A stretch of DNA of 64,000 nucleotides from sequence record MH550421. One strand, 5' to 3'. Shown here in pieces: positions 1,508 through 3,357 of the stretch. Every line of letters begins with the position of its first letter. The first letter of the stretch is position 1. Source of the DNA: Enterobacteria phage T6. A program made the position numbers and the translations under genes. The notes beneath the pieces were generated by a model, which saw only the letters and a list, made by a program, of their open reading frames with translations, was not told the DNA's origin and searched no databases.

Positions 1508-1680
1508 TCAAAAACGCTACTCGGCTTATGGCAAAGATATTTCCTCGAATCGATAATTCGGCGCGCCGTTTCTGCTGTGATGTAAGGGGATATTAACAAA
1601 ACATAAAGATTTATTAATGCCAGTCCTTACTCAGGGAACATCAGTCCGACGACTTACCGGTAGCGACCCGGTTTCTCATT

Positions 1681-1755
1681 TGGTATCCCGCCCTGGGATC
1701 GAACCAGGACCGCAAACTTAGAAGGATCGTATGCTATCCATTACACCAGCGGGAC
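1681..1755 (-). tRNA. tRNA-Arg (anticodon tentatively UCU), CCA encoded
   Basis: Acceptor GUCCCGC/GCGGGAU, T-arm CCUGG-UUCGAUC-CCAGG, 3' ACCA; anticodon loop CUUCUAA with one stem mismatch. Confidence 0.6.
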
Positions 1756-1760
1756 ATAAT

Positions 1761-2426
1761 TTAAAATTTCATTTTTCGACCTTTAAACCATCCTTCTGGA
1801 ATTGGATCAGTTTTCTTAATACGTTTAGAAACTTTTTCATCTAATGAATGAATCCACATCATACCAAATTGGGAATTCTTTTCACCTTTCTGGTGATTAT
1901 TTTTAGCGTGAATTTCTTTCATTTTATTAATAGTTTCAAGAGTATGATGCTTATTTAAAAATCTGCTATTATTTAAAAATTTTTCCTTGTATTCAGGAGT
2001 TGACCATAAACGTTTAAATACATTTGAACCATTTTGACGATATTTTTCTTGAAGTAAAATATCATTTTTAAAACGTGACTTAAACGATTTAGCTCCTTTT
2101 AAACTAGCGTCTTTCTTCTGATTTAGCATCTCAGGAATATTTATATGATCCCATCCACCTTCACCGCCAAGTTTTAAATTATACACATCTGGTCTATTTA
2201 AAAACTCTTCTGTGACAATATTTTTCTCGGCTTCAAGCATAGATTCTTTATCATCAAAATATTCTAATATTTCTTTAGAAAAATTTTCTATACCATACCT
2301 GTCTTGGGCTCTTTTTAATAATTTACCAGAACCCATATATCCATCATCTAAATTTTCGGTAGAATGCACACCAATATAAATTTTATTATTAATTTTATTT
2401 GTTATTTTATAAAGATAAAAATGCAT
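1761..2426 (-). CDS. segB: GIY-YIG homing endonuclease, SegB-like (221 aa from internal ATG)
   Basis: GIY-YIG motifs YLYKITN...KIYIGVH...GYMGSGK; sits inside the tRNA cluster; track ORF extends to 2534 across a tRNA, so the later ATG is preferred. Confidence 0.8.
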   Translation of the reverse strand: MHFYLYKITNKINNKIYIGVHSTENLDDGYMGSGKLLKRAQDRYGIENFSKEILEYFDDKESMLEAEKNIVTEEFLNRPDVYNLKLGGEGGWDHINIPEMLNQKKDASLKGAKSFKSRFKNDILLQEKYRQNGSNVFKRLWSTPEYKEKFLNNSRFLNKHHTLETINKMKEIHAKNNHQKGEKNSQFGMMWIHSLDEKVSKRIKKTDPIPEGWFKGRKMKF

Positions 2427-2472
2427 ATCAGTCCTTAATAAAGAACTGAGCGTCTCACGACGAGTCATAAAT

Positions 2473-2559
2473 TGGTGGGGAGTGGTGGAGTCGAACCACC
2501 CGAGTCGCAATGACAATGAATTTACAGTCCACACCGCTACCTCTACGGGATAACTCCCC
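2473..2559 (-). tRNA. tRNA-Tyr (GUA), type II with long variable arm
   Basis: Acceptor GGGGAGU/ACUCCCC, anticodon stem GUGGA/UUCAU, loop CUGUAAA, T-arm GGUGG-UUCGACU-CCACC, 3' ACCA. Confidence 0.7.
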
Positions 2560-2568
2560 TAATTAATT

Positions 2569-2645
2569 TGGTGACCCAGACCAGATTTGAACTGGTAACC
2601 TTTCCCTTATGAGGGGACTGCTGCTAACCATTGAGCTACAGGGCC
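2569..2645 (-). tRNA. tRNA with CAU anticodon (Ile2 or Met)
   Basis: Acceptor GGCCCUG/CUGGGUC with one U-U mismatch, loop CUCAUAA, T-arm ACCAG-UUCAAAU-CUGGU, 3' ACCA; D-arm imperfect in hand fold. Confidence 0.55.
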
Positions 2646-2646
2646 T

Positions 2647-2722
2647 TGGTGCTGATTGACGGAATCGAACCGCCGACATCCTCATTACAAGTGAGGTGCT
2701 CTACCTACTGAGCTACACGGAG
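2647..2722 (-). tRNA. tRNA-Thr (UGU)-like gene with non-pairing acceptor stem (possible pseudo or chimeric tRNA)
   Basis: Canonical D-arm GCUC/GAGC, anticodon arm CCUCA-CUUGUAA-UGAGG, T-arm GGCGG-UUCGAUU-CCGUC, 3' AAUCAGC-A-CCA, but 5' strand CUCCGUG pairs at only 3 of 7 positions. Confidence 0.5.
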
Positions 2723-2732
2723 TAGATTAAAT

Positions 2733-2806
<74 letters not shown>

Positions 2807-2811
2807 AAATT

Positions 2812-2898
2812 TGGTGCGAGAAGTGGGACTCGAACCCACAAGGAAATCATTCCGCAGCATTTTAAGTGCTGTGCCTTTACCAATTTGACCATTCTCGC
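2812..2898 (-). tRNA. tRNA-Leu (UAA), type II
   Basis: Acceptor GCGAGAA/UUCUCGC, anticodon arm CAGCA-CUUAAAA-UGCUG, variable arm GGAA/UUCC, T-arm GUGGG-UUCGAGU-CCCAC, 3' ACCA. Confidence 0.75.
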
Positions 2899-2899
2899 G

Positions 2900-2972
2900 C
2901 TGGGAATAAAGGACTCGAACCTTTGCATCTAGCAGTCAAAGTGCTATGCCTTACCAACTTGGCTAATTCCCA
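2900..2972 (-). tRNA. tRNA-Gln (UUG), CCA not encoded; abuts tRNA-Leu
   Basis: Acceptor UGGGAAU/AUUCCCA, anticodon arm UAGCA-CUUUGAC-UGCUA, T-arm AAAGG-UUCGAGU-CCUUU; one nt from the Leu 5' end, like a dimeric precursor. Confidence 0.7.
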
Positions 2973-3069
2973 ATTATTAACAAAGGCTCTCTAACAAGAA
3001 CCCTTGATGATAGAGGGTATTAATCAGTGCGGTATGAGTTAATAATAACAAATAATTCTTAAAGCATAT

Positions 3070-3357
3070 TTACCATTTATGATGATATGTATTTACGATA
3101 CATTCAAGACCCAAAGGATTCTTGAAAATATCATATTCAAGAGGACCTTTTTCTGTTTCAATAAAGAAATCAAAATTTACTGTATTAAATTTACGGTCTT
3201 CCTTCACTAATTTAACCTGAGAAGATGAACGGTCAATGTAAACCTTTTCAACTTCAAAACATGTTAAAATGCCATAATCATCAATCAAGGCTTTAGCTGC
3301 TTCTTGATCATATTTATATCCATTTTCAATGGATGATACTTTTGCATAAAGAATCAT
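3070..3357 (-). CDS. hypothetical early protein (95 aa)
   Basis: ORF 3070..3357 in a tightly packed minus-strand gene run. Confidence 0.65.
   Translation of the reverse strand: MILYAKVSSIENGYKYDQEAAKALIDDYGILTCFEVEKVYIDRSSSQVKLVKEDRKFNTVNFDFFIETEKGPLEYDIFKNPLGLECIVNTYHHKW

Follow-up and report, generated by a model that had tools for sequence, protein, structure and literature searches.

A Pro::Thr hybrid tRNA gene, very probably a pseudogene, at a repeat-bounded deletion in the tRNA cluster of bacteriophage T6

Introduction

The tRNA cluster of Enterobacteria phage T6 contains a tRNA-Thr(UGU)-like gene whose 5′ acceptor strand does not pair with its own 3′ strand. This raises the questions of how the gene acquired a foreign end and whether it can still give rise to a tRNA. 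The initial annotation placed it at 2647-2722, which is exact, and read the misfit as a recombination junction with a swapped 5′ end leaving a non-functional or chimeric tRNA. Alignment to Yersinia phage PST and to T4 bears out the junction, identifying a tRNA-Pro 5′ strand and a 165-bp deletion; the chimera is evident from that alignment, and neither a covariance model nor an MFE fold gives it an acceptor stem. The window analysed is a stretch of 64,000 nucleotides of T6 DNA (MH550421). Its positions 1600-3100 match AP018814.1 65595-67095 (T6) at 100%, and positions in AP018814 are converted into window positions by subtracting 63995.

The hybrid gene and its surroundings

The gene (2647..2722, minus strand; 76 nt with encoded CCA) is very probably a Pro::Thr hybrid tRNA pseudogene in which nt 1-7 of tRNA-Pro are joined to nt 8-76 of tRNA-Thr, as judged from Rfam, alignment, folding and acceptor pairing. 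Its RNA, read from the minus strand, is CUCCGUG-UA-GCUC-AGUAGGUA-GAGC-A-CCUCA-CUUGUAA-UGAGG-AUGUC-GGCGG-UUCGAUU-CCGUC-AAUCAGC-A-CCA. The 5′ acceptor strand CTCCGTG (2716..2722, minus strand) is identical to tRNA-Pro nt 1-7 of PST and T4, is preceded by the same 10-nt Gly-Pro intergenic spacer (2723..2732, minus strand; kept intact upstream of the hybrid in alignment to PST and T4) and is the sole tRNA-Pro-unique sequence left in T6. The following nine nucleotides, TAGCTCAGT (2707..2715, minus strand), form the crossover microhomology and occupy positions 8-16 of both tRNA-Pro and tRNA-Thr. The rest, nt 17-76 (2647..2706, minus strand), is identical to tRNA-Thr(UGU) of PST and T4 and comprises the remaining D arm, anticodon arm, variable loop, T arm, the 3′ acceptor strand AATCAGC, the discriminator A and CCA. 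Within it a motif scan locates the T-stem/loop motif GGTTCGATTCC (2661..2671, minus strand), which matches the published SegB core GGTTCRANTCC (PMC2330249). AP018814 labels the hybrid as tRNA-Thr at 66642-66716 (window 2647-2721).

All neighbouring genes of the cluster lie on the minus strand. Upstream of the hybrid are tRNA-Gln (2899-2972), tRNA-Leu (2812-2898) and, as its immediate neighbour, tRNA-Gly(UCC) (2733..2806; ARAGORN, Rfam), after which Pro, Ser and Thr come next in intact relatives. Downstream, 1 nt away, lies tRNA-Ile with the anticodon CAU (2569..2645; ARAGORN, which calls it Met, and Rfam), followed by tRNA-Tyr (2473-2559), segB (1761..2426; 221 aa) and tRNA-Arg (1681-1755). 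The endonuclease that the initial annotation called SegB-like is a true SegB, with a GIY-YIG domain found by domain search, identity to PST segB and ~95% nucleotide identity to T4 segB. It does not, however, adjoin the hybrid, as had been supposed; tRNA-Ile(CAU) and tRNA-Tyr stand between them over ~220 nt. AP018814 names this gene (65756-66421) a 'serine recombinase', and the RefSeq copy mends the name and keeps the hybrid as tRNA-Thr. A mechanical list of open reading frames starts segB from a GTG at 2534 (1761-2534, 257 aa) and so runs it into tRNA-Tyr; the plausible start is the annotated ATG at 2426, from which the protein has the 221 aa of its T4 and PST counterparts.

Several other features of the cluster can be recorded here. 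In the acceptor stem of tRNA-Ile(CAU) (2569-2645), U6 and U67 are mismatched and G2 and U71 form a wobble pair; the T4 gene, which is named Ile, is identical over the aligned region, so these irregularities are conserved and do not represent damage. tRNA-Tyr(GUA), between tRNA-Ile and segB, is present in T6 and PST and absent from T4 and Escherichia phage CJY920. Its T6 and PST versions differ by two SNPs, one of them a G/A in the variable arm, and the T stem is fully Watson-Crick in T6 (GGTGG/CCACC), whereas PST has CCATC and thus one G·U pair. tRNA-Tyr is the target of Septu (PMC13096335). The sequence downstream of tRNA-Arg (~1412-1680) has its homologues in the stable RNAs of T4, rnaD (species 2) and rnaC (species 1), and scores below the gathering threshold of every Rfam family. 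In AR1-type Tequatroviruses (AR1 AP011113, RB18, ECML-134, NiC89, ESH35) a 651-nt GIY-YIG 'segD/segB-like' ORF lies between tRNA-Gly and tRNA-Ser. At the AR1 locus (AP011113) it runs from 478 to 1128, exactly in the tRNA-Pro slot, and tRNA-Pro is unannotated; the Pro slot is therefore a landing or replacement site for a homing endonuclease in another lineage.

A 165-bp deletion between D-arm repeats

PST is 99.7% identical to T6 across the region, matching it in two pieces with 165 extra bases. The gene order is Gly-Pro-Ser-Thr-Ile in both PST and T4, and an ancestor of T6 had the usual T-even order Gln-Leu-Gly-Pro-Ser-Thr-Ile, still kept in PST. On the sense strand T6 follows PST without a break through tRNA-Gly, the 10-nt spacer and nt 1-7 of tRNA-Pro, and the alignment resumes at position 8 of tRNA-Thr. 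The 165 bp missing from T6 run from position 8 of tRNA-Pro to its end and on through the spacer, the whole of tRNA-Ser, the next spacer and nt 1-7 of tRNA-Thr.

The two parents can be written as CTCCGTG-TAGCTCAGT-TTGGTAGAGC for tRNA-Pro and GCTGATT-TAGCTCAGT-AGGTAGAGC for tRNA-Thr. Both carry TAGCTCAGT, and the crossover therefore lies somewhere inside 2707-2715. This repeat is part of a wider D-arm homology in which 17 of 19 positions match when it is extended through GGTAGAGC, and at the D arm an 18-nt stretch of T6 (window 2698-2715) is covered by both BLAST segments of PST. Alignment with undeleted relatives shows the event to be a loss of 165 bp between the two direct TAGCTCAGT repeats, which took away tRNA-Ser and most of tRNA-Pro.

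Authenticity and distribution of the junction

A 40-nt junction query, unable to seed on intact genomes, was searched against ~50,700 phage records, ~540 of which carry the interval. It matched only T6, with its RefSeq copy, and CJY920. Contigs encoding the exact T6 SegB protein were found in eight places. Six of the eight have intact Pro and Thr 5′ ends; the other two are AP018814 itself and a Logan assembly of a separate run, SRR12606221, which is 100% identical to the window over 1626 nt, junction included. The presence of the junction in a separate run means that it is no assembly artefact and is a reproducible property of sequenced T6.

Assemblies can collapse at repeats, and a sequencing or assembly error in the AP018814 record would leave a junction of this kind. 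The repeat is, however, just 9 nt long, the independent run gives the same 1626 nt at 100% identity, the same junction is present in CJY920, and the locus has been amplified, cut and mapped against AP018814 with no discrepancy reported (PMC13096335). An artefact is thus exceedingly improbable.

Other hybrids that might form within the cluster were sought as predicted Pro::Ile (9 nt), Pro::Ser (13 nt) and Gly::Thr (9 nt) junctions; built from PST-type sequences, these gave no match in ~50,000 phage records. A hybrid-specific 38-mer was likewise without a match in metagenome and genome collections, where the intact control itself was found in just 1 and 4 contigs, too few for the absence to carry weight. 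An exact-pattern match in IMG/VR was rejected as a junction; it comes from an unrelated phage, whose ordinary tRNA-Pro(UGG) has the first 26 nt in common. A 427-nt Gly-Thr interval in BYEP02 was considered as a reciprocal duplication and rejected as well, Gly, Pro, Ser and Thr being intact there with longer spacers only.

Loss of the acceptor stem

In the hybrid the 5′ strand of tRNA-Pro now faces the 3′ strand of tRNA-Thr and the acceptor stem is lost as a result. CUCCGUG pairs with AAUCAGC at only three of seven positions, as the initial annotation had counted, through one Watson-Crick pair (U-A) and two G·U pairs with four mismatches (pattern x g x x g W x). Such pairing is at chance level, since 42% of random 7-mers from the window form at least three pairs with AAUCAGC. 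All other tRNAs of the cluster have 6-7 of 7 acceptor pairs, and in the parent genes tRNA-Pro and tRNA-Thr the own 5′ and 3′ strands pair at all seven positions. The remainder of the molecule is canonical as described, with D arm, anticodon arm, T arm and 3′ CCA intact. Alignment to the T4 tRNA-Thr (T4t003) gives 100% identity over nt 8-76 and a difference in nt 1-7 alone, where the hybrid has CUCCGUG and the functional tRNA-Thr of the relatives has GCUGAUU; the hybrid is consequently left without the acceptor stem of its T4 counterpart.

Gene finding and folding agree with this picture. ARAGORN called six tRNAs in the window, the hybrid at 2647-2722 not among them. The Rfam tRNA model RF00005 gives the hybrid a local match over positions 8-63 only, with no paired acceptor stem, at 49.4 bits, compared with positions 1-71 and 75.4 bits for the intact tRNA-Thr of PST. 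The MFE fold also lacks an acceptor stem and contains a shifted 4-bp helix of G5-U8 with G71-C74, into which the discriminator base and the leading C of CCA are drawn. The folding z-score is -0.7 for the hybrid versus -2.6 for the intact gene. Folding of the hybrid together with the upstream spacer and the 3′ CCA of tRNA-Gly yielded no other acceptor partner for AAUCAGC. The acceptor-stem identity pairs of ThrRS are G1-C72 and C2-G71; at these positions the hybrid has C1·C72 and U2·G71, and its anticodon is mismatched to its Pro-derived end.

Substrate recognition by RNase P depends on the acceptor stem stacked on the T stem, and disruption of stems in T4 and other pre-tRNAs leads to less cleavage and less mature tRNA (PMC11143913). 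In T4, tRNA-Ile and tRNA-Thr share one dimeric precursor (PMC11143913). Being without an acceptor stem, the hybrid is predicted to be a poor substrate for RNase P, to lack the first two ThrRS acceptor pairs and to yield no chargeable mature tRNA. The release of tRNA-Ile by RNase P at its own 5′ end, 1 nt downstream, should be unaffected. With high confidence, T6 is predicted to have no functional phage tRNA-Pro, tRNA-Ser or tRNA-Thr, and the hybrid is judged to be a pseudogene.

The hybrid might still be a working RNA, either as a tRNA that tolerates a defective acceptor stem or as a tRNA-like decoy or processing signal. Nothing is wrong with its D, anticodon and T arms or its CCA, it is co-transcribed with tRNA-Ile, and its Thr-derived 69 nt are unaltered both between T6 and PST and between CJY920 and Shigella phage SP21535. 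An absence of decay is nevertheless expected for a recent event, the local divergence between T6 and PST being below 1%. The chance-level acceptor pairing, two leading base pairs and a position 72 unlike those of either parent, a fold no better than that of shuffled sequence and the requirement of RNase P for the acceptor/T-stem stack (PMC11143913) make a surviving function very unlikely. The hybrid has been co-expressed as a control, 'tRNA-Thr from T6', without remark and with no assay of its function (PMC13096335).

Probable recurrence of the deletion in CJY920

CJY920 carries a junction identical to that of T6, leaves the same gap in ARAGORN calls and gives a similarly truncated Rfam match (47.5 bits). 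Its record is marked UNVERIFIED and has apparent 1-nt frameshifts in segB. The haplotype differs from that of T6 in having no tRNA-Tyr, a T4-type spacer and a different tRNA-Arg. Both CJY920 (~1575-1590 of its locus) and its nearest relative, SP21535, have ATATCA and not ACCA after the Thr 3′ strand, which means that CCA is not encoded in this lineage. In SP21535, Pro-Ser-Thr are intact.

A four-way alignment of the homologous flanks groups T6 with PST and CJY920 with SP21535 at six of six informative SNPs and one indel, and none of the seven supports T6 with CJY920. From the flanking sequence, independent recurrence in T6 and CJY920 is suggested as the simpler reading. A deletion shared by descent, or a deleted allele passed on horizontally, would account for the identity of the two junctions; T-even phages readily recombine with one another, and tRNA genes next to segB are co-converted when it homes (PMC2330249). 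Each phage already sides with its own intact sister, however, at the closest informative sites, located 10 nt upstream of the repeat on one side and 37 nt downstream on the other, and any transferred tract would need to be shorter than ~60 bp, which makes a common origin of the two alleles improbable.

SegB as a candidate cause of the deletion

The repeat-bounded deletion can be read from the alignment; its initiating cause we infer. SegB has a 27-bp site with the core GGTTCRANTCC, which corresponds to the TΨC stem-loop, and its cuts fall close to the 3′ ends of tRNA genes (PMC2330249). Sites have been mapped in tRNA-Pro and tRNA-Ser of T2L; in T4 the tRNA-Ser site was mapped directly and the tRNA-Pro site was inferred from sequence identity (PMC2330249). 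The core motif GGTTCAAATCC is found in both tRNA-Pro and tRNA-Ser of PST, so that SegB sites lie between the D-arm repeats of this undeleted relative.

SegB also acts on the present T6 cluster. SITE-seq on T6 DNA gave reproducible SegB cuts in the phage's own Arg, Tyr, Gly, Leu and Gln tRNA genes, and one SegB peak falls in the T-loop of the hybrid at AP018814 66662-66665, or window 2667-2670 (Supplementary Data 1, PMC13096335). The microhomology-mediated tandem amplification of the tRNA-Tyr/segB unit in T6 needs catalytically active SegB, UvsX and UvsY (PMC13096335). Both deletion-bearing phages carry segB, as against ~125-182 of the ~540 cluster-bearing records (~23-34%), and the chance of both events falling in segB+ backgrounds is ~0.05-0.11.

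In the mechanism proposed, SegB would break both strands between the repeats, within the T-arm/3′ region of either tRNA-Pro or tRNA-Ser; resection followed by annealing or invasion at the D-arm repeats would then produce the 165-bp deletion. On this circumstantial evidence, a SegB break with repeat annealing or invasion is regarded, with modest confidence, as the most likely trigger. The same deletion could have formed without SegB, by replication slippage or by illegitimate or unequal recombination at the 9-nt D-arm repeats, and this is a realistic alternative that falls somewhat short of probable. The crossover lies in two direct copies of a 9-mer that match perfectly and are only 165 bp apart, and no nuclease cut is marked in the sequence. 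T4-type and other T-even phages undergo spontaneous deletions between short direct repeats, for which no nuclease is needed. Pointing back to SegB are the position of its sites between the repeats, the occurrence of the deletion twice, each time in a segB+ genome, and the fact that a selected rearrangement at the T6 locus did not appear in segB-deletion or catalytic-dead phage (PMC13096335).

Longer repeats exist in the cluster, of 13 nt between the Ser and Pro T arms and of 11 nt between Leu and Gln, and no hybrids were detected from them; repeat length alone therefore does not explain the site of the deletion. With two events only, the site preference may be chance.

A stronger version of the SegB mechanism holds that SegB erodes its own tRNA array, self-cleavage in the T arms of tRNA-Pro and tRNA-Ser repeatedly triggering the 165-bp deletion in independent segB+ lineages, with the loss of two self-sites perhaps being favoured. 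Among the self-sites of T4, only at the tRNA-Ser site was cleavage given individual mention and mapped in vitro (PMC2330249). If this doubtful proposal were true, the deletion would be a self-immunisation by target loss at the price of three tRNAs.

Relation to known systems and significance

In 1984 McClain and Foss reportedly obtained laboratory isolates of T4 with hybrid tRNA genes, which had arisen where short homologies in the cluster recombined. These genes resemble the T6 gene in combining the 5′ part of one T-even cluster tRNA gene with the 3′ part of another. In contrast to those isolates, the T6 hybrid stands in a reference phage as its resident allele and has been met again in a wild isolate, and it is predicted to be non-functional because its junction splits the acceptor stem. 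The rearrangement of the T6 tRNA region reported by Chihara et al. 2026 (PMC13096335) concerns the same phage and locus and likewise involves nuclease sites in tRNA T arms and microhomology junctions. Its product is, however, a 718-bp tRNA-Tyr/segB unit amplified in tandem under selection by Septu, whereas the hybrid is a deletion fixed in the stock, in which the role of SegB is circumstantial. Other phage and bacterial tRNA pseudogenes and truncated tRNA genes share with the hybrid a partial covariance match, the lack of an acceptor stem and a place inside a tRNA array; the T6 case differs in that both parents and the crossover are known to the nucleotide, since near-identical undeleted relatives exist. 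No description of the T6 hybrid was found in a search of the full-text literature, the 1978 T-even tRNA catalogue being outside its reach. Deletions between short repeats and tRNA pseudogenes are both ordinary, and the T6 hybrid is a fresh, nucleotide-resolved case.

For the T6 reference genome (AP018814 / NC_054907), which lists a very probably dead tRNA-Thr, the finding calls for a correction of the annotation. A T6 predicted to be without the phage tRNA-Pro, tRNA-Ser and tRNA-Thr of T4 and PST also bears on work in which this phage is used to study phage tRNAs and tRNA-targeting defence. The junction, seen twice on different haplotypes that are both segB+, may serve as a readout of a homing endonuclease destabilising its own neighbourhood; PCR products of 244 bp versus 409 bp would distinguish the alleles and offer a possible measure of the collateral damage done by SegB. 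More broadly, the locus illustrates in nature the way in which microhomology between the conserved arms of tRNAs can cost a phage tRNA array its genes.
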